Made by a program: the position numbers and the translations under genes. This document shows positions 5,566 to 37,296 of a stretch of DNA of 39,192 nt, piece by piece (position 1 is the stretch's first letter; every line of letters begins with the position of its first letter). The notes under the pieces were generated by a model. That model had not been told where the DNA came from. It saw nothing but the letters and a program-made list of their open reading frames with translations, and searched no databases. Origin of the DNA: a virus; IMG/VR virus record IMGVR_UViG_3300026488_000006, positions 1 through 39,192 of that record. One strand, 5' to 3'.

Positions 5566-5576
5566 CCCGCACCACC

Positions 5577-6573: not shown

Positions 6574-6575
6574 GT

Positions 6576-15348: not shown

Positions 15349-16835
15349 TTACCGCCTATTCCTTGAGTGTCTGACCCAGGAGCTCCGCCTGATTTAACTA
15401 TACTAAAGTCTGAGGGGGACAGTTGGTATAATCTACCGGAGTTATCAGAGTACCAGATAATTTCGGGGCTACCACCTATACCGCGAGGCGTGGATGTGGG
15501 CGCAGATGCGTTGCGTATTATACTAAAATCGTCAGGGGATAGTTCGTATATTGTTGAGGAACGCTGTCCTTTGACAGTCCACACTGTTGAATAATCACCC
15601 CCTGCTCCACCAAGGTAAGATGTTAAACTTTTACTCCTTAGGATAGATAAATCTTGAGTTGATACTTCGTACACATTGCCATTGTTCCAATTGGAGGCCC
15701 AAAATGTGTTGTCATCTCCTCCGGCGCCGGACATACCAATGTATGAGCTACTAAGATGGTTACTGCGCGTCAAGCTGAGGTCTTGGGGTGAAATTTCGCA
15801 AAGATAAGCAAGACCACTGGCAAACCAAATGACATCTTTGTTACCACCTATTCCTTGTGGGTAGGCATAGGGACTGGGTGTTGACCTGACTACTGAAAAA
15901 TCGTTGGGTGAGAGTTCATATATTGTATCATTTCCATCGTCAACGTGCCACACTACGTGTTGGACAACTGGTTCTGTTGAGACCGAGATTGAGTCCACGC
16001 TCGCCTGCTCCTCGGCCAGCGTGCTGAGGGCGCCCTTCTGGTACAGCAACCTGTCGCTGGCGTACACTGAGTTGGCGAAGGCCCTAATGACCAGCGTCTC
16101 CCCGCCCTGCGGAACGTAACCGACAGGTATGTCCTCACTGGCCTGTACTTCGCTTATATCGTAGCTCTCGGCTTCGGAGAAGGTAGCTGATACACCGCCA
16201 TCCACGACCCCAACTTCGCTGACCGAGGAGGTCACGAGGGAAGCAACGTTGTGCGAGCTGGAATCGTTGGTCTCTGCAAGCTCGTCGAACACGAGTTTGA
16301 TGACTTGGGCTTGGTTTATGAGAACGTTTTCCTGTGCGCTAACGGTCTCAATGAGGGTGGGGGTGAGTATTTGGCCGGCCCATACTTCCACATTGGCCTC
16401 GTCGAGGAGGCGCTCGTTTATGGAGGATGTTACACGGTCGGCCGTTTTTGTTGCAACGGAGTCAGTGGCCCCTTGAGTGTCGCCGGCCGTCCGATATTTT
16501 CTCAGCTTGGTATCATAACTTAGGCCGTCGGTGCTGGCCTGCTCCTCGGTCAGTGGCCTGATGACCAGCGGTCTCTCGACTGCCGTCGCGCTGTCGTTAA
16601 TCAGGTACTCAAGCTCCCTTGCCACCACCTCGTCGGCTATTACGGCGATGGCGTCCTCCGGGACGGCGGTTCTTTCTCTGACCGTGTATGCGTACCTGCC
16701 GTGGATTATCACGAGCGTGGTGTCTCCGCTGTGGTGGACCTCGGCCTCGACGGCCTCGCTGAGTAGGTCAATTAACTTCCTCGGCCCGAATCTTGTACTG
16801 CCGACCTTCAGCACCGACGGCCAGCGCCTCCTCAT
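15345..16835 (-). CDS. Repeat-containing protein (496 aa) with beta-propeller-like C-terminal repeats; candidate receptor-binding protein
   Basis: RBS GGGTGGGGTGAAGT before ATG; at least 5 repeats of about 45 aa in the C-terminal half (pattern IYELSP.DFS..RS ... GIGG ... W); AT-richer than neighbours. Confidence 0.6.
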   Translation of the reverse strand: MRRRWPSVLKVGSTRFGPRKLIDLLSEAVEAEVHHSGDTTLVIIHGRYAYTVRERTAVPEDAIAVIADEVVARELEYLINDSATAVERPLVIRPLTEEQASTDGLSYDTKLRKYRTAGDTQGATDSVATKTADRVTSSINERLLDEANVEVWAGQILTPTLIETVSAQENVLINQAQVIKLVFDELAETNDSSSHNVASLVTSSVSEVGVVDGGVSATFSEAESYDISEVQASEDIPVGYVPQGGETLVIRAFANSVYASDRLLYQKGALSTLAEEQASVDSISVSTEPVVQHVVWHVDDGNDTIYELSPNDFSVVRSTPSPYAYPQGIGGNKDVIWFASGLAYLCEISPQDLSLTRSNHLSSSYIGMSGAGGDDNTFWASNWNNGNVYEVSTQDLSILRSKSLTSYLGGAGGDYSTVWTVKGQRSSTIYELSPDDFSIIRNASAPTSTPRGIGGSPEIIWYSDNSGRLYQLSPSDFSIVKSGGAPGSDTQGIGGK

Positions 16836-18163: not shown

Positions 18164-18727
18164 TCATTCCTCCCACCAGTCAACGCGGATGCTAATCTGA
18201 TTGGCGTTTGAGCTTTTGTTGATGACTTCAAAGAGGACGCTGTGTCCCGGTGGTATCACGAAGGCTACGAGGCCCTCGTCCATACCGCCGACCGCTTTGT
18301 TGCCAGAGCCTCCAGGGATGACCTCTTCTCCCACCACAGTACCGCCGGAGTAGTTGGTCACGTCAATGATGACCTGTGCCACGCTCGTTGCAGTGGAACC
18401 GACCCGGAACGGGACGGGCTGTATCTGGGTCCCGCCTTGGAGTGTGGGGTCAATGACGTACTTAATCCACGCCTGGTCTGTCGTGCTCATCTTGGTGGTC
18501 ATGATGTGGATAGTTTTACCGCTCCCGGCCGGGTTGATGATGGTTAGGTCGGCAGTCGCTCCGCTGGAGATGTGGGGCCAAAGCTTTGAAACGAAGAACG
18601 CCTTGTCCTCGCTGGCCTTTATCTGGTACTGGGTGTAGGCGATGGTGTGGTCTGTGTCAGCTTTTGTAATCTTGGCGTTGATTTCTGCCGTGTTGGGGTC
18701 GCTCCTAAACACTCCCGTTACGGTCAC
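18164..18727 (-). CDS. Hypothetical protein (187 aa)
   Basis: ORF tiled in operon. Confidence 0.5.
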   Translation of the reverse strand: MTVTGVFRSDPNTAEINAKITKADTDHTIAYTQYQIKASEDKAFFVSKLWPHISSGATADLTIINPAGSGKTIHIMTTKMSTTDQAWIKYVIDPTLQGGTQIQPVPFRVGSTATSVAQVIIDVTNYSGGTVVGEEVIPGGSGNKAVGGMDEGLVAFVIPPGHSVLFEVINKSSNANQISIRVDWWEE

Positions 18728-19049: not shown

Positions 19050-19709
19050 TCACACCCCCGTACCCATTAGCTCGTTCCACCTCTTTGATGCGTACTCAAA
19101 TAGGTCGTCTCCAACGAGCTTTTTAAGCCACATCGGGGCCTCGTATGGCTCAAGGAAGGTGTATATCTTGCAGGCCTTCTTGCCCTCGATGAGGGAGTCA
19201 ATCTTCTTCGTGTCCCTGATGACGCGGTAGGAGTACTTGGCGATGTCGAAGCTGAGCATAGCGTAGATGTCCTGGCCACTTTGGTTGCTTATCTTAAAGC
19301 TCGGGTAGAGGTCGAGGAAGGTTATTAGCTCAGCCCTAGCGTCCGGGTCCTCGAACGGGCTTATTATGCCGTCAATCCACTTTGTCTTGCCGGGCACTGA
19401 ACGAGTGCCACGGAGGCTGTACCTGGCGACCCTTGGCGGAAAGTCGAGGTAAACCTCCGCCTCTTCTGGCGCAACGCCGACGAAGGTGTGCAGTATGAAC
19501 CTCTCGCGCTCGGGCTCAAGAACTCTATCGTTCGTCCCTGGGAAGGTTGGTTCAATCCAGTCGGTGGTCTTGCCGGCCTGAACCACGCCAACCTCGTACG
19601 GCTCGTAGCTCATTATTTCTCTACCTGTCACCCTAAAGAACACGGGGCCCTCACGGAAGGCCACCGCGAGGTAGTGTCCGGGCTTAAGGAATTCTGGCTT
19701 TTCGCGCAT
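19050..19709 (-). CDS. Hypothetical protein (about 219 aa)
   Basis: Track ORF 19050..19724; ATG at 19709 after RBS GGGAGGTGGTGA; TATA-like TTATTTATAA about 95 nt upstream on the minus strand. Confidence 0.5.
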   Translation of the reverse strand: MREKPEFLKPGHYLAVAFREGPVFFRVTGREIMSYEPYEVGVVQAGKTTDWIEPTFPGTNDRVLEPERERFILHTFVGVAPEEAEVYLDFPPRVARYSLRGTRSVPGKTKWIDGIISPFEDPDARAELITFLDLYPSFKISNQSGQDIYAMLSFDIAKYSYRVIRDTKKIDSLIEGKKACKIYTFLEPYEAPMWLKKLVGDDLFEYASKRWNELMGTGV

Positions 19710-19831
19710 TTCACCACCTCCCAAAGTTATAACTGCCGAGAACAGTGTTCCCGGCCTTCTCTCTCTTCGGCCGTCCGGTCACCTTTGCCACCTCCGTTAC
19801 GGAGTTATAAATAAGGAAAAGATGTTAGGCT

Positions 19832-20529: not shown

Positions 20530-20967
20530 TCAGAACAAATACTCCTCCTCTTCCTCTACTGGAGCCGGCTGGGTCTCAACCGGAGCCGGGGTGACGGCCA
20601 CGGTAATCGGCTGGGCGACGGGGGCGCTCATAGCGACCTTGTTCCAGGTGAGGCCGAGGTTGCTGGCGACCTTATCGGCGAGCTGGTCGGGCGAAACCTT
20701 GTCGTTAACCCACTCCCAGATTGGCGGGAACAGCGCACCGAAGACAGCGTAGCCCCTCCACTCGGGGTGGCCCATCTTGTCAGCGACCCAGCTCATCAGT
20801 CCGGCGCCAAGGACGTTTCCGAAGTAGCCGAGCCACTTGTTGCCGTTGCCGGCCCTCTCAAGGACGCCACCGATGACGGCGCTGGCGAGGCCGGAGACGG
20901 TCGCGTATCCGAGGCCGACGACGGTCTTCTCCGTGAAGATGTTCTTTATGTCCTCAACAAATCCCAT
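20530..20967 (-). CDS. Putative membrane protein (145 aa) with acidic C-terminal tail
   Basis: Gly/Ala-rich hydrophobic segments; C-terminus EEEEYLF. Confidence 0.55.
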   Translation of the reverse strand: MGFVEDIKNIFTEKTVVGLGYATVSGLASAVIGGVLERAGNGNKWLGYFGNVLGAGLMSWVADKMGHPEWRGYAVFGALFPPIWEWVNDKVSPDQLADKVASNLGLTWNKVAMSAPVAQPITVAVTPAPVETQPAPVEEEEEYLF

Positions 20968-21007
20968 CTCGCGTCACCTCCATCCGCTAAATAATGAGGG
21001 GTGGGCG

Positions 21008-21442
21008 TCAGAGCCCAGCGCCTCTGAAGAACTCTCCAGCCTTGTATGTGCCATACTCTTCGCCCTTCTTCGCCCTAAGCATAGCCTCAAGCTCAGCGAC
21101 GGTGTGGTAGCTCTTCTTGACCCTGCTCGGGTATTCCTCAGGCTTCATAGCGTCTGGGGCGCGGTAACCCCTCATCTCCTCGGATATCCTCCTCAGCCTC
21201 TCGGCGAGAGGCATTCCCTTGGTGGCGCTCGCAATCTTGGCGAACTCCAGCCTGGTCTCAATCTGGCCGAGGTGCGGGCTCTCGATGGTGTACGGGAGGT
21301 TCGCGAGTATAGCTCCGCTCTTCTTGACCCACCAGCGCGCACCGACGCTCTGGATGTAGAATCCCTTAGCTCCGATGTTATTCATAGGAGTTGCCTTACC
21401 GGCGAGACCGGCAACGAGGGTCTGGGGCCTTATCTTCGTCAT
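21008..21442 (-). CDS. Hypothetical protein (about 144 aa), candidate abundant structural protein
   Basis: Track ORF 21008..21532; ATG at 21442 after strong RBS GGAGGTGGTG; own TATA-like box (CATAAATATC) upstream. Confidence 0.5.
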   Translation of the reverse strand: MTKIRPQTLVAGLAGKATPMNNIGAKGFYIQSVGARWWVKKSGAILANLPYTIESPHLGQIETRLEFAKIASATKGMPLAERLRRISEEMRGYRAPDAMKPEEYPSRVKKSYHTVAELEAMLRAKKGEEYGTYKAGEFFRGAGL

Positions 21443-21649
21443 CTCAACACCACCTCCAGTGGTTCTTTTTGTTGCCGGGTTTCGGCCCCCGGTAGGGCTC
21501 CCGGTCTCGTTCTCTGTGTATGTTTTTTGCAAAAGAGATATTTATGTCTTTCGCTCCGCAAAACCCGCCCTTTGCAGAAAGCAATGTTTCGCATGTGGTT
21601 GGTCAACGGTTGAGTTTACAAATGTAAAAGAAAAGGTTGCGTGGCACAG

Positions 21650-22174
21650 TCACTCCAGCGCCCACTCAAGGATGTCGAGGAGCTTGTCGAGCTTTGTCCT
21701 CGGTCTCGCCCACCGCTTGCCCTTCAACAGCTTCACCATCGCCTGACTCTTTGTGAGCAGTTGGCCGTCAACGAGGACGGCCTTCTTACCCACGAGCCCC
21801 GGCCTGCCGAGGTATCTGCCAACGTCCACAACCTCACCACCCACGAGCTCCGCAACCTCCTCGTGGCTCAACTCTCCGGCGAGCTTTGCCAGCTTTGCCA
21901 TTTCCTCCCACGCCTTCCGCTTCGCCTCGGTCGGTGGCTTCTCCGGCGTCCGGCGGAAGTAAATGGTGTCACCCCTTTTGGCAACCACGACGGCCCTTGA
22001 GCCCTTCATAGGCTTCGCCGGCGTGCTCATAGCCTTCCGGTAGAGCCTTTCCAACCTCGCGAGCCTGTCCTGGTCGAGAGGTCCCCCATTCAGCTCCACC
22101 GCCAACGGCGACGGCTTGAGCTTTGGACGCCCTTCTTTGAGCTCGTAGGCGACCTTGGTTAGGAGTGTCTCCAT
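21650..22174 (-). CDS. Hypothetical basic protein (about 174 aa)
   Basis: Track ORF 21650..22219; ATG at 22174 after GAGGTGGTGCTT, directly after the upstream stop. Confidence 0.5.
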   Translation of the reverse strand: METLLTKVAYELKEGRPKLKPSPLAVELNGGPLDQDRLARLERLYRKAMSTPAKPMKGSRAVVVAKRGDTIYFRRTPEKPPTEAKRKAWEEMAKLAKLAGELSHEEVAELVGGEVVDVGRYLGRPGLVGKKAVLVDGQLLTKSQAMVKLLKGKRWARPRTKLDKLLDILEWALE

Positions 22175-22184
22175 AAGCACCACC

Positions 22185-22715
22185 TCAGACGCCGAAGCCG
22201 AGGAAGCCGAGCTTCTCAAGGTCGGTTAGCCGGCGCCTGTTTAGGATTTTCACGCGCCCGTTTTCCCACATCATCACGCCTTCTCTGCTGAAGACCTTTA
22301 AGACCTCCTGCGGGTCTTCGTAGCCGAGCTCCCGGATGCGCTCCATAAGCTCCTGTATGTCGTAGTCGCGCCCGCGCAGGTAATCGTAGGCTCGGTCGTA
22401 GGGCTCCGGGATTTTCGGTATCTCGGCGATGAGCTTTGCGACGGCCTTTTTCACGCCGGTCGCCACGCTCCCGTATTGCCTCTCCAGCTCCCTCGCGTGG
22501 TCGAGGGAGATGTAAACGTTGCTCAGCCGGACGGTCTTATACTTGAGCCTCCTTATCTGCGCGGGGCTGAGCTTGTACCCCCAGCGCCTTTCAATCTCGG
22601 CTTGGAGCGTCTTGTCGGTGAACTTGCTAACGACGGGCATCTTACCCCAGTTCTCCTCGACGAACTCCTCAATCTGAGCCAGCACCGGCGCCGGGATGTC
22701 CGCGAGCCTAACCAT
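22185..22715 (-). CDS. Hypothetical protein (176 aa)
   Basis: ORF directly downstream of the giant gene. Confidence 0.5.
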   Translation of the reverse strand: MVRLADIPAPVLAQIEEFVEENWGKMPVVSKFTDKTLQAEIERRWGYKLSPAQIRRLKYKTVRLSNVYISLDHARELERQYGSVATGVKKAVAKLIAEIPKIPEPYDRAYDYLRGRDYDIQELMERIRELGYEDPQEVLKVFSREGVMMWENGRVKILNRRRLTDLEKLGFLGFGV

Positions 22716-22721
22716 ACCCCA

Positions 22722-25700
22722 TCACCTCAGCTCCTTCCTCAACTCCGCAACGAACTTTTCATATATCTCGTTGAACGGCCAGGGGAATTCTGGCTCGTAG
22801 CCAAGACTCTTCAGCACCGTCGCGGGCACCACTGCGACCAAGTAGAACATCGTGGGCTCGCAAAGCCAGCCCTTCTCGTTCTCTCCGAGCTCGTCCTCAA
22901 ACTTGACCTGCACCGTGAAGTGGTTGTAGTCCGCCTTGTGGCAAATCTTTCTGTGCTTTCTGAGGAAAGCCAGCACGGCAGTACTGTAAGGCTCGCCCGC
23001 CTTAGCATTCCTCTTCAGCCATGCACGTATGAGGCTCGCAACCTTCCTATATACCTCGTGGATGCCACCCTCGACCAGAGCACCGCCCGCCTGCTCCACA
23101 GCGTATAGCGCCATCGCTTCGGCGAACGTCAGCGGGGCCCTCTTCTTCCTGTCTATGTACTCGCCGATGATGTTCTCCCCGAGCCACTTCTTGAGAAAGT
23201 CGGCATACATGCTGGCGTCCGAGTGAGTCTTGGCCTTCTCCTTAAGGTAGCGCTCAACGCCATACCACAGCATAGCTGAGAGCTCGCGCGGGTCTTCGAG
23301 GGCCCGACTGAGCCACTCCGGCACCTCGCCGAGGTACTGGTAGATGTTCTTTGGCTTCGATAGTTCTTTCCTCCGCTCGACTATCTCAGTTGCTGAAACC
23401 ACCCCACCCGAGCGCTTCTTCATCTCGACCGGGAGCTCTCGGCGCCCGACCTTTTGGTTGTACACACTTGTGGCCAACTTCGAGGCTTCGATGACGGCGC
23501 TGTCGAACGGGAGCTCGCCCTTGGCCACCATATCCGCGAGAACCCATAGGTCGCGCTCGATGTCGGGGAGCACGAAGTCGAGGTCAATGTTGCGCTTGAG
23601 TAGTCTGCGGTCGAGGCTCTTGAGTAGGCGCTCATAGGTGGCTCTAACTTCCTCTGGCACTTCCGGTGCTCTTCTTGGCTCAATCTCTTCGCTTATGGCC
23701 TCTTCTTCCGGCGTCAACTCCTTCACCTCCCTTTCGGCCCTGCGCTCGGGTTTTGCACCCAGCATTTTCTTCGCTTCCTCGACCTTCGCCTTCGGCAACG
23801 CCTTCCGCGCCTCCTTCATCACGATGGCCATCGCCCTCGGCTGGGTGAGCCTGCCTTCATAGACCTCGCGGGCGAGGCGCTCGATGAGCTCAAGCGGGGG
23901 CTCCGGCGGTCTGACATCGTGGAGCTCGAAGTAGCCTTCCCAGGTGTCGGTCAGCTTGCGCCTGATGAAGCGGAGGTCTTCCTCCTCCTGCGTCGCCATC
24001 TCGGCGACTTCTTCGAGCGGGAGCTCCGTCGCCTCGCCGTGCACCTTGACCGGGACCTCAACCTCCTCAAGCGGGGCCCCCTCTTTCTCCCCGGCAATAG
24101 TTCTCACCATGGACTCCTCCGGGATTTCGGCCTTCTGCTTCTCCTCCAGCTCGGCCTCAAGCTCCGGTAGCTCTTCCGGTGCCGGCGGTAAGTATTCCTT
24201 CGCCAGCTCGCGGACGTGGCGTGCCCATTCTTCCGGCGTCATCCCGAGGCGCCTGGCGAACTCTTCATCATTGGCCAACTGCTCGACCACTTCCTCGGCG
24301 CTGGTGGCACCGTACTGCTCCGGGTGCTCAAGGGCGTCGCGGATGTAGTCGTCAACCTGCCTCAGCAACTCGGCCCGCTCTTCCGTCTCAGTTGGCTTGA
24401 GCTTCCACCTCATAACCTCGGCTCCAGCCCTCGCGAGGAGCGCCTCCTCCTTGTTGGTCGGGAGCGTCCGGGCGTAGTGGACGAGCATATCATAGACCGT
24501 ACGGAACGGGTAGTAGTCGAGCTTCTGCCAGTCATAGTCTTCGACCTCGCTCGGGCTGATTGCGCCGAGGAGGACGAGCGTCTTGGCCACGCGCTCCGGC
24601 GTCGGCTTTAGGCCGAGGTAAAAGCCGAGCTGGGCGCGCTCTATTGAGGGCTTCGGCTTCTCCTCGCGGGCGGGCTTAGGCTCTGGCTGTGCGGACTTGG
24701 CAGTCCCCGGGACTTCTCTCGGCTTTTCCACCTTCTTCTTGCATTTTTCCACCTGTGGTGCCAGGAAGCGCTCAAAGTACGTAGTCACCAGCTCCTGTAA
24801 GTAGTTGGCTTTGACAAAGTTTAGGTGGCCGGGCTTGAGCTCGCGACGGACGACGTTGTAATACCCGCGGGCGTTGTCTGAGATGTGGCACACGCCGTTG
24901 GGGTAGTGTTTCTCGGGGTACAAAAACTCCTCACGGACGCCGAACTCGCGCTCAAGGTGGCGGGCGAAAACGTCCCTCGGAGCTGTCTTGGCGAACTCCT
25001 CGACTTGCTTCGTGAGCTCCGGCGTCACGTAGCGGACGTTGTAGTTTGGCTCATAAGACTCCGATTGTTTTGCTAATGCCTCAAGCTCAGCCTTTACTCT
25101 GTTGAGCGTCTCCCGCACGTCTTCCATCTGCTCCTTGAGCTCCTCGTCGCTCACGCGCGGGTTGCCTATCATCCTCCCAAGCACGCGCACCTTCACCTTT
25201 AGCGAGTTCTTAATGGTCGTGCTTAGCTTCCAAGGGAGCTTTTCCGGCAGGTTCTTGCGGAGCTCTTCGTATTCCTTGATTAGCTTCCTGGCCTCTTCCT
25301 CAAGCGCAAGGCGCTTTTCCGCCTCGGTGCCGGCCTTTGACTTAACGCCCAGCCCGCTCGTCAGGTAGCCGACGTATTTGCAGAAGTCCGGCATATTGGC
25401 GTCCTTCCACGTGAAGTTGGAGAGGTACTGGGCGAGGTAGAGTATCTCGCGGTCGAGCGGGTTGGCGCCGTGCCACTTGGGGATTTTTCCACGCTTTATG
25501 TCGGCACAGGCCATATCGAGCGGTATGAGCACGGCTTTGACCGGCTCGACCTTCCCGGCGTTGTAAAGCTTCCACGCCATAGCCGTGAGCGCCATGAGCT
25601 CCCTAAGCTTCTTCAGGCAGTCGTAGGGGCTCCTGCTGTCCCTACACAACTTATCGTAGTCGGTCCTCAATAGGATGAGCTTTCCGCCCGACAGGCACCA

Positions 25701-27761
25701 CCCAAGCTTTTTGCGCTCTATGAACTCACATATCTCGTCCGCCGAGACCTCCGCACCCATCCTGGCCAGCCTGCTCACCAGCCCCGGTAGCGTGTCCCAG
25801 ATTGAGAAGACCGTTGGGCTCTTGTTTAGCTTCTCGTCAATTATCTTCATTAATTCCTCGCGCCAGTCCACCTTTTTCGGACTCAGCCTCTCCAGAACTT
25901 CCTTTGTGAGCTCACGGGCGAGTGAGTGGACGCAGGGAACGTACTTACGCGGGTCTTTTCCACGACCAACCTCACAAACCCCGTCGAGCTCGATGGTCTC
26001 GCCGTTCACCCTTGCGCTCAACGTGATGTAGGCGCCGTGTAACTGCCCCAACCTCATCGTCAGCTCGAAGTCGCCCACCGCCGTCTTGACGAGCCACGTT
26101 TTTTCAGCCTGCGTGTCGCTGTTCCATTCCTTGACTGCCTTCCAGTCCAACGGGGGCTTCCCGGTCTCGTGGAGCACTACCTCGTACACCCCGTCGTAAA
26201 GCGCCTTCCGAGCATTCTTCCATACCTCGTTCCAGGGCTCCTTGAGCTCCGGCGGGTTAAGGCGGACTTCGCCGAACTTCTTTGAGAGGCCGGGAACGTT
26301 CATAGTGCGCTCGATGATTTCGAGGGCGTCGGCGATGGCGTTATCAGTCAGCTTCCTTACCCACGCCTTCCGCTTCGGCGACCAGCGGAACCCGTGCGCC
26401 TTGAGCTCGCGCCTAACCTCTGCCGGCGGGGCGCTCGTAAAGACCACCCAGAGCCTATCGTCGGCGTGGTTAGCAATGATTTTCCAGCCGTCACCCTTGG
26501 CCAACACCTGAACACCGCTTGTCGTGCCCTTGGCCTGCGCTTCTTTTTTCTCTAACTCCTCAATACGGGCCTTGAGGCGCTTTATTTTTTCACCAACACG
26601 GCGGAGCTCAAAGTCGGGGAAACCAATCCTGCCCAGCTCGTCCGGCTCCGGCCAAAAGAAGAAGTGGCCGGCCTCTGCAACTTTAAATGCGCCAATCTCT
26701 TTAAGCTTCCTCTCCTTCTCTTCGGGCGTGAGCTTCTTTGAGCGGATGATTTTGTTCGCTTCCTTCATTATCTCACGGCGCTTTTCGAGTATCGCCAACT
26801 CTTCCTTTAACCTCTCCAGTTCGCCAACGGCCTTTTTGTTCACGGCGCCCTGCTTCAGAGCTTCCTGCTCCTTCTTCAGCTCCTCTGCCAATTTATCAAG
26901 CTTCTTAAAGGCGTTCTTGATGAACTCGTCGAGCGCTGACAGCTTCCTATGTTCAGTCCGCCAGAGCTTTTCGAGCCGGTCTTGGCTCGGCATCCTCGCC
27001 GGCCCAACCACGTGGGCGCTCGGAATTCTCGCCCTCGTCGTTAAGTAGTCCTCATAAAGCTCAATGTAGCGCTTCGAAAAGTTTTGTATCAACCTCTTCG
27101 CCCGTTCGGGGCCGATGAGCGGGCAGAGCTTCTGCACCTTCTCAGCGTAGCGGTTCAGAGTGCGGAGGTAAGAGAGCTGGTCATACTCCGCGTCTTTCTC
27201 CGGGGTCCACGAATTAATAGAATACGCGCCCTTCGCCCGCTCAAACGGGAACGGTGTAACTTTGACGGGGATTATATCAGCCTTCCCGCCATAGTAACAC
27301 TCGATTTCAAGCGTCCAATTGTCCTGAATAAACGGGCCCCGTTCCCGCTTCGCCCTAACAACTGTCAAGATTTTATCAACGGGGCGCTCAAGCTCTTCTA
27401 CAAGAGAGTTCAATTGCGGGAGCTCGGATTTAAGCCTCTCAATAGCACCCTTGAGCTTCTCAACGTCTTCTGGTGTGAATTTATAGCGCCCAATGTCGGC
27501 CTCTCTCATTAAGTCGCGGTAGCGGTCAATGAGCTTATTCACGGCCACCCAGTCCCTCCACAGCCTCAAGAACTCCTCAACGCGCTCTTTCATCCCGGGC
27601 GGGAACTCCTCGCCGGCCTGTCTAATCTCATCTATATGTTCCTTGAGCCATAGGGCGCGGACGTAGTTCTTCATATCCTTTGTTCCCGAGAACCACCCGT
27701 TTTCGGCCCGGATGTCGTTAAACTCCCAGATGAGCTTTTGGACTTCATCGTACAGGTTCAC
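22722..27761 (-). CDS. Giant multidomain protein (1,679 aa) of unknown function
   Basis: Uninterrupted 5 kb ORF; GTG start at 27761 after RBS GGGGGTGGTGGC; coiled-coil-like and highly acidic/basic segments; no Walker A, no polymerase or primase motif that I could confirm. Confidence 0.7.
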   Translation of the reverse strand: MNLYDEVQKLIWEFNDIRAENGWFSGTKDMKNYVRALWLKEHIDEIRQAGEEFPPGMKERVEEFLRLWRDWVAVNKLIDRYRDLMREADIGRYKFTPEDVEKLKGAIERLKSELPQLNSLVEELERPVDKILTVVRAKRERGPFIQDNWTLEIECYYGGKADIIPVKVTPFPFERAKGAYSINSWTPEKDAEYDQLSYLRTLNRYAEKVQKLCPLIGPERAKRLIQNFSKRYIELYEDYLTTRARIPSAHVVGPARMPSQDRLEKLWRTEHRKLSALDEFIKNAFKKLDKLAEELKKEQEALKQGAVNKKAVGELERLKEELAILEKRREIMKEANKIIRSKKLTPEEKERKLKEIGAFKVAEAGHFFFWPEPDELGRIGFPDFELRRVGEKIKRLKARIEELEKKEAQAKGTTSGVQVLAKGDGWKIIANHADDRLWVVFTSAPPAEVRRELKAHGFRWSPKRKAWVRKLTDNAIADALEIIERTMNVPGLSKKFGEVRLNPPELKEPWNEVWKNARKALYDGVYEVVLHETGKPPLDWKAVKEWNSDTQAEKTWLVKTAVGDFELTMRLGQLHGAYITLSARVNGETIELDGVCEVGRGKDPRKYVPCVHSLARELTKEVLERLSPKKVDWREELMKIIDEKLNKSPTVFSIWDTLPGLVSRLARMGAEVSADEICEFIERKKLGWCLSGGKLILLRTDYDKLCRDSRSPYDCLKKLRELMALTAMAWKLYNAGKVEPVKAVLIPLDMACADIKRGKIPKWHGANPLDREILYLAQYLSNFTWKDANMPDFCKYVGYLTSGLGVKSKAGTEAEKRLALEEEARKLIKEYEELRKNLPEKLPWKLSTTIKNSLKVKVRVLGRMIGNPRVSDEELKEQMEDVRETLNRVKAELEALAKQSESYEPNYNVRYVTPELTKQVEEFAKTAPRDVFARHLEREFGVREEFLYPEKHYPNGVCHISDNARGYYNVVRRELKPGHLNFVKANYLQELVTTYFERFLAPQVEKCKKKVEKPREVPGTAKSAQPEPKPAREEKPKPSIERAQLGFYLGLKPTPERVAKTLVLLGAISPSEVEDYDWQKLDYYPFRTVYDMLVHYARTLPTNKEEALLARAGAEVMRWKLKPTETEERAELLRQVDDYIRDALEHPEQYGATSAEEVVEQLANDEEFARRLGMTPEEWARHVRELAKEYLPPAPEELPELEAELEEKQKAEIPEESMVRTIAGEKEGAPLEEVEVPVKVHGEATELPLEEVAEMATQEEEDLRFIRRKLTDTWEGYFELHDVRPPEPPLELIERLAREVYEGRLTQPRAMAIVMKEARKALPKAKVEEAKKMLGAKPERRAEREVKELTPEEEAISEEIEPRRAPEVPEEVRATYERLLKSLDRRLLKRNIDLDFVLPDIERDLWVLADMVAKGELPFDSAVIEASKLATSVYNQKVGRRELPVEMKKRSGGVVSATEIVERRKELSKPKNIYQYLGEVPEWLSRALEDPRELSAMLWYGVERYLKEKAKTHSDASMYADFLKKWLGENIIGEYIDRKKRAPLTFAEAMALYAVEQAGGALVEGGIHEVYRKVASLIRAWLKRNAKAGEPYSTAVLAFLRKHRKICHKADYNHFTVQVKFEDELGENEKGWLCEPTMFYLVAVVPATVLKSLGYEPEFPWPFNEIYEKFVAELRKELR

Positions 27762-27846
27762 GCCACCACCCCCTACTCGACCGCTCCCCGATGTTCGTAG
27801 TTAGGCGCTCGAAGTATAAACCATTTTCGCCGGAGCCACCGAGAAA

Positions 27847-28527: not shown

Positions 28528-28563
28528 GTTGCAAAAAAGTTGTAAAAACGGCAGATTTTTAAG
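28528..28563 (+). promoter_or_regulatory. Conserved early-promoter element (GTTGCAAAAAAGTTGTAAAAACGGCAG plus TATA-like ATTTTTAAGG)
   Basis: 24 of 27 nt identical to 29887-29913; same distance (57-58 nt) from motif end to the start codon. Confidence 0.5.
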
Positions 28564-29687: not shown

Positions 29688-29688
29688 A

Positions 29689-29747
29689 CCTTCTTTTTTT
29701 CGCCCGCTTTATAACCCGGTTATAATTTCTCACAACCGGGTTTTGCC
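29689..29747 (+). terminator. Terminator-like element: oligo-T plus palindrome TTATAACCCGGTTATAA and AACCGGGTTTTGCC
   Basis: T9 run immediately after the operon's last stop; about 80 percent identical to 30326-30382. Confidence 0.45.
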
Positions 29748-29886
29748 TGGGGGGCTACATATATACTACATATAATTCCACGCCCCAAGTTTCACCACGA
29801 TAACTTAGTTTTAGCAGTTGATAACTCGGTTATGTCGCGTGAGTTTCTGACGCGACTCCGAGGCGCTCTCAGACGCGAGAACTTTG

Positions 29887-29932
29887 TTGCAAAAAAGTTT
29901 CAAAAACGGAAGGTTTATATATGTGTTTAAAC
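29887..29932 (+). promoter_or_regulatory. Conserved early-promoter element, second copy (GTTGCAAAAAAGTTTCAAAAACGGAAG plus TATA-like GTTTATATATG and GTTTAAAC)
   Basis: See 28528-28563. Confidence 0.5.
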
Positions 29933-29969: not shown

Positions 29970-30323
29970 ATGGAGAAGGTGAGAATCATACCGCACAGGT
30001 TTGAGGACAAGGAAGAGTACATCAACGCCCTCGTCGGGACCTGGAAGCGCAACTGGGAAATCTTCAAGAAGGAGCACCCGCGCGTCGCTAAGCGCTTTGA
30101 GGAGGCAGTCGAGAAGTACGGCGGTATGGATACTATGCTTAGGAAGTTCGCAGAAGACATAGCTTTTGACAAGCGGAGGACGAGGGTTCAGGTTCCCCTC
30201 ACATGCAGAAGATACTTATACAATGACTACGGTATGAGCATCAAGTTCTACGACGACGGCGACATCGTGTATGCGAGGGGCTCAATCAGCTCAAGCGTCC
30301 GCGACATCCTGGGTGTTTGCTGA
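29970..30323 (+). CDS. Hypothetical protein (about 117 aa)
   Basis: Track ORF 29952..30323; ATG at 29970 after RBS GAGGTGG. Confidence 0.55.
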   Translation: MEKVRIIPHRFEDKEEYINALVGTWKRNWEIFKKEHPRVAKRFEEAVEKYGGMDTMLRKFAEDIAFDKRRTRVQVPLTCRRYLYNDYGMSIKFYDDGDIVYARGSISSSVRDILGVC

Positions 30324-30325
30324 CC

Positions 30326-30382
30326 CTTCTTTTTTCGCCCGCCTTATAACTCGGTTATAGCTTTTCTTAACTCGGTTTTGCC
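30326..30382 (+). terminator. Terminator-like element, second copy: oligo-T plus palindrome TTATAACTCGGTTATAG and AACTCGGTTTTGCC
   Basis: Immediately after the stop of 29970..30323; homologous to 29689-29747. Confidence 0.45.
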
Positions 30383-30512
30383 AAGGAAGGACACGTAACC
30401 CTCACCCCCAACTCTATGTTTAAACTCCCGCAACCCCGACCTTTACAGATGCAAAACCTTAAATACCCCTTTTGCAAAAATCTTATACGAACAACGTCAA
30501 GGGGGTGGCACT

Positions 30513-31598
30513 GTGGACGACGAGGAAAAGCGCGAGAAGGCCGGGGAAAACCGCCCCGACGACTTCAGCGAGCTCGACGACCTTTTAGAAGCCCTTATGG
30601 GCGCCGAGGAGGTGGCAGAAGACAGCCAAAGCGAGGAACCACCCGACGACGCCAAAGAACCACCCGCCGAACCCAAACACAGAAAGTACGCCCCAAACCC
30701 GTACAGCAAAATCAAAGACATCCCCGAAGACTTCCTCACGTTCCTCCTTGAGACGGACGCGAAGTGGGCAAAGCGCAAGCTGTGGCGCGGAATCATCAGA
30801 AGCATCTACGAGAACCCGCGCGCGCACTCGACAGACATTGCCAAGCTCCTCGACACGACGCCCTCCACCGTCATGCGCACCGCCGAGCGATATAGGGCTA
30901 TGTGGAACGAGCTTCGCGAGGACTACGAGGAGTGGAAGCGGAAGCTTGAGGAAGGCGTCCCGGGCGAGTTAGAGTCGAAGCTCCCACCAACCAAAGCCCC
31001 TTCCCCACAGCCGGCCCCGGAGCCGGCGCCGAAGAAGCGTGGGGGCTCGAAGAGCTCTACGGGTGGCGAGAAAGAAGAAAAAATCCCGCAGAAGCTCTAC
31101 GAGTTCACCAAGAGCACGACGACCTTCAAAGAGATTGATAAGACGCTTAGCGAAGTGCTCGGTGCTCAGTTCCACGATACGGCGGTTAGAAAGGAAGTTT
31201 ACGCCCGGCTCGGCGAACTGCTGATTTTCAGCCTCCTCCAGCTCGGTGTGGTCGAGCGTGATAAAATAGTCGCCTACTCTGAACAGCTCTCGACCGACCC
31301 GGACAGGCTCTACGAGTACGTCAAAAACCAGCTCGACGCCGTTCTCCGCTTAACCGACGCCGAGACGCTCCAGCGCGTCTGGGTCGAGCTAACCGCGCTC
31401 AGGCGCCAGGTCAGGGCACTCGAAGCGACCGCCGACATGCTCAGCGACACGCTAAAAGAGTACGAGGACGCCATCCGGTTCCTCATGGGTCTTCTCACGC
31501 GCGACCAGCTCGAAAAGTTCTCCGCGTATGTGTTTATGAAGGAGTTTATGAAGCAGTACGCGCCCCTGCAGGGCGCCGTTCCTGGAGGTGGTAGATGA
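30513..31598 (+). CDS. Hypothetical protein (361 aa) with acidic N-terminus and a helix-turn-helix-like segment; possible transcription regulator
   Basis: RBS GGGGGTGG before GTG; segment RAHSTDIAKLLDTTPSTVMRTAERYRAMWNE resembles an HTH; C-terminal codons form the next gene's RBS. Confidence 0.55.
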   Translation: MDDEEKREKAGENRPDDFSELDDLLEALMGAEEVAEDSQSEEPPDDAKEPPAEPKHRKYAPNPYSKIKDIPEDFLTFLLETDAKWAKRKLWRGIIRSIYENPRAHSTDIAKLLDTTPSTVMRTAERYRAMWNELREDYEEWKRKLEEGVPGELESKLPPTKAPSPQPAPEPAPKKRGGSKSSTGGEKEEKIPQKLYEFTKSTTTFKEIDKTLSEVLGAQFHDTAVRKEVYARLGELLIFSLLQLGVVERDKIVAYSEQLSTDPDRLYEYVKNQLDAVLRLTDAETLQRVWVELTALRRQVRALEATADMLSDTLKEYEDAIRFLMGLLTRDQLEKFSAYVFMKEFMKQYAPLQGAVPGGGR

Positions 31599-32779
31599 TG
31601 GAAGCCGTGCAGGTCGAAAAGACCGCCGAGGAGGCGCCGACCGAGGTGCCGAAGCTCGAAGAGTTTCTCCCCGTCGGAGAAGCCCAGCCCGCCGAGGAAA
31701 ACGCCCCAGAGCTCCCGAAAGAGGTGCAGAACCAGATTGCGACGACAATCGTCCAGGGCCAGATGGCCGGCCTAAGCGAGGAGGAGATAAAGGAGAAAAT
31801 CAAGGAGCGCTACGGCCTAAGCGACGAGGAAGCTGAGCTCACGATGCAGATGATAATGAAGTACCTCGACCGCTCCCAGAGACAGGAATACGAGCTCAAG
31901 AAGACCGCACTCGGAATGATGCCGGCGCTCGCGGAGACTATGGCGCAGAGCCAGAACCCGCTCGCCCCGCTGATTATGCAACGCCTCATCGAGATGGCCG
32001 GATTCAAGGAGGAGAAAGACGACTTCGTGAAGGACATCGTGGAGGCGAAAAAGCAACTCTACAAGGTCAAGATGATAAGCGAGGTGCTCAAGGACGACGA
32101 GGGCAAAAAGTCCGGCTCGTTCGACGCGCTCATCCTTGAGATGATACGTCAGATGGAGCGGGAGAAGGCCGAGGCCCAAAAGATGCTCTACCAGCTCCTC
32201 CTTGAGGAGCGGAACAGGAAGGACAGTGGGGAGACCGAGGCGCTAAAAGAGGCACTCGTGAAGTTCATAGACGCGATAGACCAGCGCCTCGAAATGATGA
32301 TGGAGATGATACAGGAACAGAAGAGCACGCCGGTCAACGGGGGCCCGCGCTACAAGGACCCGCTTGAGGAGCTTTTGGAGCACCAGCAGAAGCTCAACCA
32401 GCTCCTTGAGACCCTCGAAAAGGCCGGGCTCGTGAAGCGCAACGATGACGAGTCCAGCCTCCTTGAGGCTCAGCTAAAGCTCAAGGAGTTCGAGCTCAAG
32501 CAGAAGGAAGTCGAGGCGAAGCAAATATTCTACTCGAAGCTCGCCGAGGCGCTGAGCAACCCACAGACGCTCCGGGTCATCTTCGACGGGCTCAGAGGCA
32601 TCTTCGCCGGGCTCCTCGGTAGGGCGCCGAGCCCACAGACCTTCAACAACGCCCTCGCTCAAGCACCTGTCCAGGCGCCGGCCCCCACGCCGGCCCCCGT
32701 CCCCAAGCCAGAACCGCCGGCGGACATTCCGAGCCTTGAGGAGTTCGTCCAGCAGGCCGGGGGTGAGGGTGGTGGCTGA
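31595..32779 (+). CDS. Coiled-coil rich hypothetical protein (394 aa)
   Basis: RBS GGAGGTGGT; ATGA overlap; E/K/Q/L-rich heptad-like sequence; Pro/Ala-rich region near the C-terminus. Confidence 0.6.
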   Translation: MMEAVQVEKTAEEAPTEVPKLEEFLPVGEAQPAEENAPELPKEVQNQIATTIVQGQMAGLSEEEIKEKIKERYGLSDEEAELTMQMIMKYLDRSQRQEYELKKTALGMMPALAETMAQSQNPLAPLIMQRLIEMAGFKEEKDDFVKDIVEAKKQLYKVKMISEVLKDDEGKKSGSFDALILEMIRQMEREKAEAQKMLYQLLLEERNRKDSGETEALKEALVKFIDAIDQRLEMMMEMIQEQKSTPVNGGPRYKDPLEELLEHQQKLNQLLETLEKAGLVKRNDDESSLLEAQLKLKEFELKQKEVEAKQIFYSKLAEALSNPQTLRVIFDGLRGIFAGLLGRAPSPQTFNNALAQAPVQAPAPTPAPVPKPEPPADIPSLEEFVQQAGGEGGG

Positions 32780-32987
32780 ACCGAACCCCAAGACAGTCGC
32801 AGTCTTCCGCTGGCTCGCCCAGACGCTCCGGGCGGGCTACAACAACCCCGCCGTGCTTTTGAAGGCGAAAGATGAGATAAAGAAAAACGAAAAGGTGATT
32901 GAGGGGGCGGTGAGGGATGCCATTCGGCCCGAATTTGAGGAATACGTCGAGCTCGTTAAGTCCCTCCTCGGCGGAGGCTCAGCTTGA
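32772..32987 (+). CDS. Small hypothetical protein (about 71 aa)
   Basis: Track ORF 32736..32987 begins at a TTG; an in-frame GTG at 32769/32772 follows RBS GGTGAGGGTG and is the more likely start. Confidence 0.45.
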   Translation: MAEPNPKTVAVFRWLAQTLRAGYNNPAVLLKAKDEIKKNEKVIEGAVRDAIRPEFEEYVELVKSLLGGGSA

Positions 32988-33306
32988 CAAAGCGCTTGAG
33001 GAGTACGACCGACTCTTTCAGGAGGAGTTCGAGCGGAAGAAGGCGATTTGGCTCAAGATGACGCAGGAACAGCGCGACCAGTACACCCGCACCGTGCTCG
33101 GCCGGATACTCAAGAAGGCCAAGGAAAACCCGCTTGAAGGACTAAAAGCCTTTGCCCAGCTCATAGGCTCGCCAGAGGGTGTTTTGGTGTGGGCCAACAT
33201 CTGGAAGCCGGAGTACTGGCCTTACGTGGCGGAAGTTACCGGGGAGGCCTACAAGCTGATGGTGAAGTTCGCCGTGCTCAGTGAGGTCGGGGGTGGGCAG
33301 AAGTGA
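32917..33306 (+). CDS. Hypothetical protein (up to 129 aa), start uncertain
   Basis: Overlaps the previous ORF by about 70 nt in the +1 frame; alternative start at ATG 33058 has a weak RBS; end is well defined (GTGA overlap with the next gene). Confidence 0.4.
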   Translation: MPFGPNLRNTSSSLSPSSAEAQLDKALEEYDRLFQEEFERKKAIWLKMTQEQRDQYTRTVLGRILKKAKENPLEGLKAFAQLIGSPEGVLVWANIWKPEYWPYVAEVTGEAYKLMVKFAVLSEVGGGQK

Positions 33307-33713
33307 GCCTCGAACTCATGCGCCGATGGGTCGCCTCGCTCCCGCCGGCGGAGCGGTCGCTCCCACTCCTCCACGTGGGCGAGGCCTTCTACACACCATT
33401 GCAAGCGCTCCGAGAAGTTGAAAAAGGTACAACGATTGGTGAAAAACTACAACAGCTCGTAGAGCAAGGGCGCTTTGGGACGGACTTAAACGCCCTTGCA
33501 AAGGCCCGCCTCCAGCTCCTCCTTGAGCGGGCGAAGGGCTACGAGATAGCCTCGCTCAGCGGGATAAGCATTCCCACTGACAAGCTCGCCAAGCTCGTGG
33601 CTCAAGGCGACCTATCAAATCCACTCATCCAAGAGCTCGCGGAGGCCGACCTCCTTCTCGCCCAACAGGCGCTCAAGCTCGGTAAAAAGCTCGCTGGAGG
33701 TGGTGGGAAATGA
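33303..33713 (+). CDS. Hypothetical protein (136 aa)
   Basis: RBS GGGGGTGGGCAG before GTG; GTGA overlap; Gly-rich C-terminal codons form the next RBS. Confidence 0.55.
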   Translation: MSLELMRRWVASLPPAERSLPLLHVGEAFYTPLQALREVEKGTTIGEKLQQLVEQGRFGTDLNALAKARLQLLLERAKGYEIASLSGISIPTDKLAKLVAQGDLSNPLIQELAEADLLLAQQALKLGKKLAGGGGK

Positions 33714-33997
33714 CGCCGGCTGAGCTCCTCGCTCAGGTTGAGGCGCTCCTCGACGCGGGGCGCTACAACGAGGCCCTTCGGCTCCTCGCCTCGGATAGGG
33801 CACTCTACCAGCGCGTCACTCAGGGCGTCATCAGGGCCCTTGAGAGCGACCCCCATGGCATCATCACGGACATAAACGGCAACGTGTGGCGCACGAGCGA
33901 CCTAATCCGCTACGTCAGAGCCGGCCACTGGTTCGGCCCGCTGTTCAACCTGCTCCGCTCCGAGGTCGAGCTCCTCCGGCGCCAGCTCGGGGGGTGA
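33710..33997 (+). CDS. Hypothetical protein (95 aa)
   Basis: RBS GGAGGTGGTGGG; ATGA overlap. Confidence 0.55.
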   Translation: MTPAELLAQVEALLDAGRYNEALRLLASDRALYQRVTQGVIRALESDPHGIITDINGNVWRTSDLIRYVRAGHWFGPLFNLLRSEVELLRRQLGG

Positions 33998-34767
33998 CGC
34001 CCTTGCTTTACATTTTGCCGACCACGCACGGTGTTGACGTGCCGAGCACGATAATGAAGAACGTCGCGCCCCAGATTGACGAGAGCCCGATAATCCTCTG
34101 GGACGGCGAAGCGACCGCCGAGAACGCCAGGAAGGCCATCCTTGGGCACAACCCGCCGTACATTTTCACGACCGGCCATGGGCTCCCGTGCGCCACCACG
34201 CTCCAGGACTTACAGCCGTTCATCAGCCTCGCAGAGCCCCAGATGAGCCCCTACTGTAAGGCCGAGCGCAACCTCGACATCGTGAAGGGTCGCGTCTGGC
34301 ACGTCCACTCGTGCTGGTGCGGGCTCCAACTCGCACAGGAGATGGTCAAAAGGGGCGCCTGGGCGGTCTTCGCCCACGACAAGGAGTTTTTATTCCTTAT
34401 GCCCAAGACGGGCAAGATTGACATCATTACCGCCACGCCGTTTCTCGCAGAGTTCACCGTTGACAGTGCAATGCTCAGCGGAATGACCGCCGGCGAGGCG
34501 CAGAAGGCAAGGGAAAAGGCCTATGACCATTGGCTCGACTACTTCCTCAAGGGCGAAGGGCAGAAGCTCGACCCGGCCCCGCTCGTGGCGCGCATCGTCC
34601 TCGCCGACAAGATGATTAGCAAGCTCTACGGCGACCCGACAGCAACTGTAACAAAGCCCGGACCAAGAAAGACCTTCCAGCTCGGCCTCCCTCTCGATAG
34701 GCCAGTGGGCGGTTCCGCCATTTGGCTCGCGCTCCCCGTGGCACTCCTGATGTTTGCAAGGGGGTGA
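33994..34767 (+). CDS. Hypothetical Cys/His-containing protein (about 257 aa) with C-terminal hydrophobic anchor
   Basis: Track ORF 33886..34767; in-frame GTG at 33994 overlaps the upstream stop (GTGA); conserved-looking His/Cys residues (HGLPCATT, HSCWCG); C-terminal AIWLALPVALLMF. Confidence 0.5.
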   Translation: MTPLLYILPTTHGVDVPSTIMKNVAPQIDESPIILWDGEATAENARKAILGHNPPYIFTTGHGLPCATTLQDLQPFISLAEPQMSPYCKAERNLDIVKGRVWHVHSCWCGLQLAQEMVKRGAWAVFAHDKEFLFLMPKTGKIDIITATPFLAEFTVDSAMLSGMTAGEAQKAREKAYDHWLDYFLKGEGQKLDPAPLVARIVLADKMISKLYGDPTATVTKPGPRKTFQLGLPLDRPVGGSAIWLALPVALLMFARG

Positions 34768-34771
34768 GCCT

Positions 34772-34939
34772 ATGGCGAGGCGCGACACCACCGCAATCCT
34801 CAAACGGCTAAAAAAGCGCCTCGACCGGGCGAGAAAAGCCCTCCTCGTTGAGGACAGCGCCACGGCGCTGGAGCACGTGGATTGGGCAATCCTTGAGCTC
34901 GAAGAGCTCGCCGAAGAAAGTGCGGAGGTGGGAGAGTGA
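34772..34939 (+). CDS. Small hypothetical protein (about 55 aa)
   Basis: Track ORF 34754..34939; ATG at 34772 after RBS GGGGGTGAG. Confidence 0.45.
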   Translation: MARRDTTAILKRLKKRLDRARKALLVEDSATALEHVDWAILELEELAEESAEVGE

Positions 34940-35295
34940 TACCGCCGAGCTGGGCCTACGGGATAAGTACGGGAAGCCTGCTAACGATGCTACTCGGCGT
35001 CCTCCTCGGGGCGACGCTCGGGACCATCATCGGCACCGAGATTGCTTACCGGCGCACCGAGCGGTGGCTACGAAAGCTCCTAACAGACAAAGAGTTTCAG
35101 AACCTCGCCGTCGGCTGGCTCAAGCGGACGGCTCAGCAGTTCGAGAACGAGTACGTGAAACCGAAAATCGAAAGCGAGGAGTTCCGCGAGCTCGTCAGGA
35201 AGGCGAAAGAACAGGCAATGCAGGCGCTCCTCGGGCCGGGCGAGCCCCCAACCGACGTGCCGAGCCTTGATGACTTCGTAGGGGGTGAGGGGTGA
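34936..35295 (+). CDS. Membrane protein (119 aa) with N-terminal TM helix
   Basis: RBS GGAGGTGGGAGA before GTG; hydrophobic N-terminus LLTMLLGVLLGATLGTIIG. Confidence 0.55.
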   Translation: MIPPSWAYGISTGSLLTMLLGVLLGATLGTIIGTEIAYRRTERWLRKLLTDKEFQNLAVGWLKRTAQQFENEYVKPKIESEEFRELVRKAKEQAMQALLGPGEPPTDVPSLDDFVGGEG

Positions 35296-37130: not shown

Positions 37131-37296
37131 CACGCTCCTTCCTAAGTGTTGCAATAAAGCACTCGTCGAAAAACTCACAAGCTTCACAGAGCGAGTCGCC
37201 CTGAAAGTCTCCAAAGCAAGGCGGTAGTTCCTCAGCGCCCTCATTGTCGAATTCGCCCCAAACCTCTCCAAAAACCGTTATGAGAACCTTAGCCAC
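37117..37296 (-). CDS. Small Cys-rich protein (59 aa), possible metal-binding
   Basis: Not in the ORF track. GTG start after RBS GGGGGTGACGGGGC, directly after the upstream stop; C-x11-C-x2-C-x5-C; overlaps the dpdA-like start by 14 nt in another frame. Confidence 0.35.
   Translation of the reverse strand: MAKVLITVFGEVWGEFDNEGAEELPPCFGDFQGDSLCEACEFFDECFIATLRKERDGRV

Follow-up and report, generated by a model that had tools for sequence, protein, structure and literature searches.

The 39,192-nt stretch analyzed here, which is the whole of the IMG/VR virus record IMGVR_UViG_3300026488_000006 (hereafter the window), encodes on its minus strand a 1,679-aa protein (22722..27761) that is best explained, with confidence a little short of even, as a protein of polyvalent type and mosaic build, with which a circular Thermococcus mobile element would invade a cell or become established there. 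Judged from its homologs, this giant protein is not one uniform unknown but an assembly of modules, at least six of which are separable and delimited by independent sets of homologs. What appears to be new is the occurrence of such a mosaic protein of polyvalent type in an element of a hyperthermophilic archaeon, in which a DUF3560 module that crosses the domains of life is joined to modules that are almost all undescribed.

The giant open reading frame (ORF) starts with GTG, ends with a stop codon at 22722-22724, and occupies 5,040 of the 39,065 bp of the element (12.9%), in agreement with the original prediction, made from the DNA alone, of a single 5-kb ORF taking about 13% of the element. 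Because a protein of equal length from an independent metagenome (P0001) is 93% identical to the 1,679-aa product, the ORF represents a real, conserved gene. The element itself is a closed circle of 39,065 bp, since positions 1-127 of the window recur exactly at 39066-39192 (a 127-nt direct repeat from assembly overlap). The host is most likely a Thermococcus from a deep-sea vent, because two records are 100% identical to parts of the element: a 248-aa partial NCBI protein labelled Thermococcus sp. (P0130), which corresponds to the C-terminus of the giant protein, and a 2.8-kb contig of a Thermococcus metagenome-assembled genome (MAG), L010, which corresponds to window 20673-23470. A 1.7-kb contig (L012; JAMOSW010000056.1, 1-1703) that is 92% identical to window 20674-22410 was binned in a Pyrodictiaceae MAG; this placement is probably an artefact of the short contig and provides no evidence for a second host.

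Neither Pfam nor NCBIfam contained a family matching the full protein, a sequence search of the PDB recovered no relative with a solved structure, and neither family alignment, used as a profile, matched any PDB sequence; no characterised family covers the protein. Together with PHROGs and fold searches, these comparisons revealed no enzymatic domain in it. Several features that the original prediction had read from the letters were borne out: no Walker A motif and no hydrophobic segment of transmembrane strength were found anywhere in the 1,679 residues, and the long coiled-coil-like stretches correspond to long helices predicted by AlphaFold2. The acidic region it had described is also present (aa ~1151-1300; 23862..24311, minus strand, as are all parts of the protein given below), with a net charge of about -25, and is predicted in part to be a disordered linker, but instead of being central it opens the final third of the protein. 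By domain-wise searches of the kind that it had proposed, one module, termed Module A, was assigned to the DUF3560 superfamily, the others being almost all undescribed, and structure models were confident for Module A (predicted local distance difference test, pLDDT, >90) and for aa 1479-1679 (pLDDT ~90), but poor for aa ~491-889 except for helices at aa 814-904.

Module A (aa ~150-490; 26292..27314) is identified as a divergent DUF3560-superfamily module by PHROG matches, homologs, and its AlphaFold2 model. It matches phrog_19458 (E 1e-34) and phrog_6744 (E 3e-29), and a search with this module alone recovered 165 proteins, most of them stand-alone proteins of ~300 aa and many with PF12083 (DUF3560). 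Classical PF12083 proteins (P0037, P0044, and P0109), for which the Pfam model gives E-values of 1e-30 to 1e-44, align to residues ~280-479 of the giant protein (E 1e-20 to 1e-28), and a stand-alone sister subfamily of ~300 aa aligns end to end with residues ~174-484. The giant protein gave no match to the PF12083 model even at E<=1; this model has 124 positions and covers the N-terminal part of the classical proteins, and the first third of Module A follows the sister-subfamily pattern VGPARMPS, not the classical pattern. Since PF12083 proteins align but the Pfam model is unmatched, Module A is a divergent member of the DUF3560 superfamily and not a Pfam-defined one; no structure has been solved for this family. 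The motifs of Module A are SAHVVGPARMP (248-258), MKEANKIIR (332-340), PDELGRIGFP (373-382), and GFRWSP (457-462), and all of the family motifs that lie outside the Pfam model (MKxANKxIR, PDxxGRIGFP, and GFRWSPxxxAW) are carried by the giant protein.

In an alignment of 112 Module A sequences, N336 and W467 are invariant, and M332, K333, R436, P445, K454, G457, F458, and W460 are conserved in at least 90%; the giant protein has every one of them. The conserved residues are limited to N, K, R, G, P, W, F, and M, and the alignment contains no conserved Asp, Glu, His, Cys, or Ser; none of the conserved positions looks catalytic, and the module looks non-enzymatic. With the same alignment, AlphaFold2 modelled aa 150-490 as long helical hairpins followed by an alpha/beta domain of ~70 aa (aa ~415-487; 26301..26519), comprising three strands, a helix, two short strands, and a helix. 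Residues 403-472 of one homolog (P0136) match residues 415-484 of the giant protein at 59% identity in a protein that lacks the rest of Module A, so this small subdomain is mobile by itself. The net charge of Module A is +16, and it is predicted to bind nucleic acid.

Outside the archaeal relatives, Module A is widespread in mobile elements. With tblastn, it was detected in 13 phage records and in 389 plasmids, of which 213 are conjugative, 156 non-mobilizable, and 20 mobilizable. Its bacterial settings are the early or leading parts of phage and plasmid genomes and the interior of polyvalent proteins, where it neighbours the anti-restriction domains ArdA and ArdC. In P0007 and P0008, it is embedded in bacterial polyvalent proteins that also carry ArdA, ArdC-N, M78 peptidase, LPD16/25/26, YodL, and DUF4316, and in P0009 it is embedded in one carrying LPD38 and InPase; in these three proteins, the part matched by Module A has no Pfam model. 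P0063 is a fusion of ArdC-N and DUF3560, and on the conjugative plasmid pMG2200, Module A forms part of a 1,306-aa "YodL domain" protein encoded in the transfer region beside topoisomerase III and a relaxase module. On a Vibrio plasmid, stand-alone copies lie in the group of small genes that separates parB from the gene for the coupling protein, and others belong to early-like arrays of small genes in Faecalibacterium phage Toutatis and in a tailed virus of the archaeal Methanofastidiosa. Klebsiella CRISPR spacers have also been reported to target a DUF3560 gene that ~1,000 plasmids carry (PMC6965323). Unlike the stand-alone DUF3560 proteins, however, Module A in the window is embedded in a 1,679-aa archaeal protein.

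At the opposite end of the protein, an exhaustive search with aa 480-1679 revealed a constant core (aa ~1225-1679; 22725..24089) that is located at the C-terminus of every relative (P0001-P0004, P0131-P0135, and P0137), although the core-bearing family members span 603-1,867 aa. The core is characterized by the motifs P.WL...L..P, hPDA.Y.D...W, and ALY.L..GG.L..GG...Y, and is modelled as helices plus a small sheet. At all loci with genomic context (L001, L003, L004, L005, L007, L017, and L018), the core protein is followed directly by a gene for a 176-aa protein and then by colinear small genes. In the window, this gene (22185..22715, minus strand) encodes a basic protein and is tightly coupled to the giant gene; it was used as the family's positional anchor, being 58-84% identical across the related loci and 99% identical in the near-identical L007. 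Scans of genomes and metagenomes with this 176-aa anchor added only a few short loci.

The front of the protein varies beside conserved neighbours. At L001, the neighbouring genes are 50-70% identical to those of the window, and the giant protein is alignable only over aa 5-594 (42% identity). In L005, which is part of a 33.8-kb relative (L005/L013; IMGVR_UViG_3300005095_000458), the corresponding protein has 706 aa and consists of a winged helix and the core, all N-terminal modules being absent; the neighbours are nonetheless 40-84% identical, and the plus-strand "early" genes are also conserved. Because the core is constant and the front is variable beside conserved neighbours, the N-terminal ~1,220 aa are regarded as accessory cargo and the C-terminal ~450 aa as the fixed part.

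The modules between these two extremes are likewise defined by homologs, and their arrangement is mosaic. The N-terminal helical region (aa 1-149; 27315..27761), for which AlphaFold2 predicted helices with pLDDT 50-79, is common only to P0001 and to an internal part of P0003; in BLAST comparisons, residues 5-594 of the giant protein match residues 633-1202 of P0003. The region of aa ~491-889 (25095..26291) shares its residues 491-594 with P0003, and its remaining part (aa ~600-889), which is basic (+14) and contains 7 of the 14 cysteines, matches only P0001. Module B (aa ~890-1100; 24462..25094) is common to P0002 and P0136, with 68% identity to P0136 over aa 900-1009, and a further module (aa ~1032-1182; 24216..24668) matches the N-termini of five proteins of ~670-710 aa that have no Pfam domain (P0138-P0142). 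Pfam searches of the archaeal partner proteins revealed nothing beyond a marginal RQC-type winged helix. Since Module B precedes Module A in P0002, module order is shuffled, and an all-against-all BLAST of 20 family proteins confirmed this shuffling, with the C-terminal domain always terminal.

Within the core, the last ~145 aa (~1533-1679; 22727..23164) form a swapped allelic cassette. Identity to P0001 is 96-100% up to aa ~1500 and then falls to 24-70%. At the nucleotide level, blastn aligned L007 to the window at 98.6% down to position 23165 and again at 98.9% from the next gene, and found no nucleotide similarity between L007 and window 22727-23164; the cassette is a localised replacement, not general divergence. 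One Thermococcus MAG contains two contigs over this interval, L010 with the allele of the window (100%) and L011 with the allele of L007 (98.7% to L007); thus, two cassette alleles coexist in one sample, and that of L007 also occurs in a second metagenome. The two alleles are members of one domain family. The C-terminal Cys/His-containing domain proposed in the original prediction falls within this interval and was not upheld: C1607, C1634, H1603, H1608, and H1614 are not conserved among homologs, and because they lie in a swapped cassette and are not conserved, they do not define a metal-binding domain.

Polyvalent proteins, as described by Iyer, Burroughs, Anand, de Souza, and Aravind in 2017 (PMC5512222), are very large multi-domain products of phages and conjugative elements and are predicted to enter the host together with the DNA. 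The giant protein resembles them in uniting several distinct domains in one polypeptide of a mobile element, and its Module A recurs in polyvalent proteins bearing ArdA, ArdC, and LPD domains. Its orthologs are mosaic in module content and order, as are the Helicobacter prophage polyvalent orthologs (jhp1044), which are described as extremely mosaic (PMC5512222), and it pairs a constant terminal region with variable cargo in a manner reminiscent of N4 gp50, the C-terminal region of which is required for encapsidation (PMC5512222). Unlike polyvalent proteins, it contains no named LPD, ArdC, or MuF domain, and domain searches found no combination of disparate enzymatic activities; moreover, polyvalent proteins of >1,000 aa are almost all bacterial (PMC5512222), whereas the host here is a hyperthermophilic archaeon. 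The giant protein is thus described as working like a polyvalent protein but is not filed as a full member, because the enzymatic domains are absent and delivery and the virion or type IV secretion system context are only putative.

In the proposed mechanism, the constant C-terminal domain would anchor the protein to products of the conserved gene module, either by protein-protein contact or by incorporation into a particle or transfer complex, and the N-terminal modules would form an exchangeable cargo array. Module A would bind the nucleic acid of the element at or soon after entry, and the protein would act on or around the element's own DNA in the new cell in protection, establishment, or host takeover. 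The turnover of N-terminal modules and the cassette polymorphism may reflect conflict with the host or with competing elements. Several observations weigh against this explanation. Only one of the ~6 modules, Module A, connects the giant protein to the polyvalent network, and the literature available to the analysis gives no function for DUF3560. No enzyme domain typical of polyvalent proteins (zincin protease, methylase-SNF2, ADP-ribosyltransferase, nuclease, or lysozyme) was found in the protein or its archaeal relatives, structure searches with the C-terminal domain returned only generic helical bundles, and the element has no recognisable genes for a capsid, terminase, portal, packaging ATPase, or conjugation; any packaging or transfer of the giant protein is putative.

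The original prediction had offered either a large structural or genome-delivery protein or a replication initiator or primase-like protein. Of the former pair, the delivery or establishment form is favoured by the shared module and by the constant/variable architecture, and the structural form is less so. A role confined to virion structure, with the helical length of the protein building or measuring part of the particle as in a scaffold, vertex, internal, or tape-measure-like component, would account for the largely helical model, for the position of the gene at the head of a conserved module of small, mostly soluble, acidic proteins, for the listing of the related 33.8-kb contig as viral in IMG/VR, and for weak virion hints within the module, namely a homolog of HATV-2 gp010, a tail-fibre PHROG, and a lipothrixvirus match. 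The position also recalls that in the haloarchaeal virus SH1, in which VP1 (gp13), a head protein of 1,390 aa, is encoded upstream of the ATPase and capsid genes; in both cases a very large gene starts a block, which in SH1 holds structural genes. However, phmmer comparison of all window proteins with SH1 proteins returned nothing better than E 0.009 at 5 bits, no similarity to VP1, the ATPase, VP4, or VP7 was detected, and the ATPase and twin single-jelly-roll capsid genes that define the SH1 group were not found in the element, which led to rejection of an SH1-like virus. Similarly, the giant protein is long, mostly helical, and the product of the largest gene of the element, as is usual for tail tape-measure proteins, and tape-measure and LPD proteins top the Foldseek list against BFVD; however, none of those matches is significant, the tape-measure family phrog_4704 is reached only at E 0.64, the protein has no hydrophobic segments, and no tail tube or chaperone genes were found. 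A ruler or scaffold is unlikely because length varies threefold among relatives (603-1,867 aa) whose neighbours are 40-84% identical, and the N-terminal 1,200 aa are missing altogether from the 706-aa version. The shuffled module order also argues against a structural role, as does the occurrence of Module A mostly in plasmids and phage early regions instead of virion modules, and a purely structural protein is considered rather unlikely.

An early protein that is not delivered, made from the first transcription unit after entry and acting in the cell as a DNA-bound hub for regulation, anti-defence, segregation, or tethering, would differ from the polyvalent-type explanation in the delivery step only. 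It is consistent with the location of the giant gene, which is first beside a divergent control region and perhaps outside the late or structural operon, given a probable internal promoter 1.2 kb downstream, as well as with the basic products of two co-transcribed neighbours and with the settings of stand-alone DUF3560-type genes (phage early-like regions and the parB-coupling-protein interval of a Vibrio plasmid). However, the invariant C-terminal domain is always coupled to the 176-aa gene, which argues for a fixed physical partner, a 5-kb gene would be a slow first responder, and the bacterial fused versions sit in proteins that are thought to be transferred (PMC5512222); this alternative is judged improbable. 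Far less credible is a replication initiator, primase-like protein, or accessory replication factor for the circular genome. In its favor, phrog_19458 is labelled "primase", the Toutatis homolog is encoded a few kb from a replication protein gene, and the search for another initiator in the element yielded only a UvrD-like helicase. The label, however, traces to an automatic RASTtk annotation of the 306-aa Toutatis homolog, which has no Pfam domain at all and no primase domain. Pfam and NCBIfam found no Toprim/DnaG or archaeo-eukaryotic primase domain in the giant protein, which likewise shows no polymerase or Walker motif; the AlphaFold2 fold of Module A, helical hairpins followed by the ~70-aa alpha/beta domain, is not that of a primase or polymerase and offers no conserved acidic or His residues; and the N-terminal region is dispensable in relatives such as L005.

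A broader form of the polyvalent-type explanation, more speculative and itself doubtful, is that viruses and plasmids of vent-dwelling hyperthermophilic archaea use giant polyvalent-type proteins of their own, in which the dedicated and so far undescribed C-terminal domain would load the protein into the particle or transfer complex, the rapidly reshuffled N-terminal array would be the cargo, and the cassette would be an exchangeable specificity determinant. Balancing or diversifying selection might then act on the cassette, which could help to escape a host sensor, for instance, or to fit a particular variant of the host or partner. Were this broader form true, DUF3560 would gain a cross-domain role in DNA establishment, and the polyvalent-protein strategy would extend to Archaea with an entirely new domain repertoire; an archaeal family made from unrelated modules would show that the strategy recurs rather than the parts. 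Hundreds of conjugative plasmids, resistance plasmids among them, and many phages carry DUF3560-type genes, and the module in the Thermococcus giant protein would tie these genes to a theme of invasion and establishment across the domains of life. A thermostable archaeal Module A could be a convenient subject for biochemical and structural work, the core together with the 176-aa gene offers a positional handle for new anti-defence or takeover domains in archaeal elements, and the two-allele cassette in otherwise identical genomes represents a natural experiment on recognition by the C-terminal tip.

Upstream of the giant gene, a TTTATA box (27815-27820, minus strand) is located ~55-60 nt before the GTG start, with a purine-rich stretch just upstream of the box, and a Shine-Dalgarno-like GGGGGTGGTGG can be read at 27763-27773 (minus strand); both are assigned a putative function by analogy with the known form of archaeal promoters. 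The original prediction had placed the gene at the head of an 18-kb module. The upstream neighbour is indeed divergent, with the same layout in relatives, but the intergenic gap at 21533..21649 (minus strand), downstream of a 189-aa gene, contains a promoter-like ATAAATAT box and a TTTTGCAAAA palindrome and possibly marks the end of the giant gene's transcription unit. Because of this promoter-like gap, the giant gene and the next two genes, both of which encode basic proteins, may form a separate transcription unit within the "18-kb operon". The TTTTGCAAAA palindrome recurs in intergenic promoter-like regions at 21525-21534, 30470-30479, and 38462-38471, one copy marking the probable internal promoter at 21533-21649; allowing at most one mismatch, there are five matches versus 0.86 expected. 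Promoter-like blocks of 34-60 nt are also repeated in two pairs (28528-28561 with 29886-29919, and 29688-29747 with 30323-30382), and these, together with the TTTTGCAAAA copies, suggest a shared operator for a regulator encoded by the element. In the 33.8-kb relative L005/L013, an HNH endonuclease gene lies just upstream of the module, and the homologs of the plus-strand "early" genes (3096-8690, corresponding to window 30513-35270) are on the same strand as the giant-protein module; thus, one block is inverted between the two elements.

Most of the element's genes stayed unassigned after Pfam and PHROGs searches of ~35 ORFs, tblastn comparisons with collections of phages and plasmids, and profile searches of the PDB, and no integrase was recognised in the element. 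The genes that could be assigned include a UvrD-like superfamily 1 helicase (138-1802), an N6/N4 DNA methyltransferase (4336-5586), and a DpdA-like DNA transglycosylase (36321-37271, minus strand; PF23859, E 2e-20), which lies in a stretch of low GC content (0.49-0.52) and suggests 7-deazaguanine-type modification of the element's DNA. The module downstream of the giant gene, which encodes mostly soluble, acidic small proteins, is conserved and offers only weak viral hints of a virion or DNA-transfer context. The 187-aa product of 18164-18727 (minus strand) is similar to the HATV-2 protein gp010 (E 2e-4, with 30% identity over 75% of the length), which that haloarchaeal myovirus encodes between its portal and prohead-protease genes; no other connection of the module to a known virion module was found. 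The 234-aa product of 14009-14713 has weak matches to a tail-fibre PHROG (8e-5) and to a Betalipothrixvirus protein (7e-4). The product of 19050-19724 (minus strand), among the best-conserved of the module, was considered as an FtsK/HerA-type packaging ATPase and rejected, its GVVQAGKT motif (aa 46) being unconserved in orthologs (GEIQAGNT, GTVASGDS, and GVVSAGNT). A beta-helix protein weakly indicated in L001 adds one more faint hint of a virus, and the element is tentatively regarded as a probable virus. Working with samples of the same kind, a 2026 preprint on viruses of Thermococcales recognised 19 families and classed communities without a recognisable capsid protein as probable plasmids (PMC12934983); compared by their written descriptions, none of these families fits a 39-kb circle without a recognisable capsid protein, terminase, or ATPase.

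Within the ORF at 15345-16835, which encodes a 496-aa acidic protein, GC content drops to 0.46 over 15001-16000 versus ~0.58 elsewhere, and at the syntenic position L001 has a gene for a 465-aa protein that weakly matches beta-helix families (NosD/Beta_helix); the window's ORF may be an exchanged receptor-binding or fibre gene. The adjacent paralogous genes at 13526-13996 and 14009-14713 share blocks of 56-70 nt at 76-84% identity, and N-terminal coding blocks (11627-11673 and 12450-12496) are shared by two genes. Finally, a lower-GC intergenic region (3824-4205) contains a 74-nt direct repeat (3824-3897 and 3963-4036, 88% identity) interlaced with a 51-nt inverted repeat (3863-3913 and 4155-4205, 96% identity), and is a candidate replication origin or regulatory locus.

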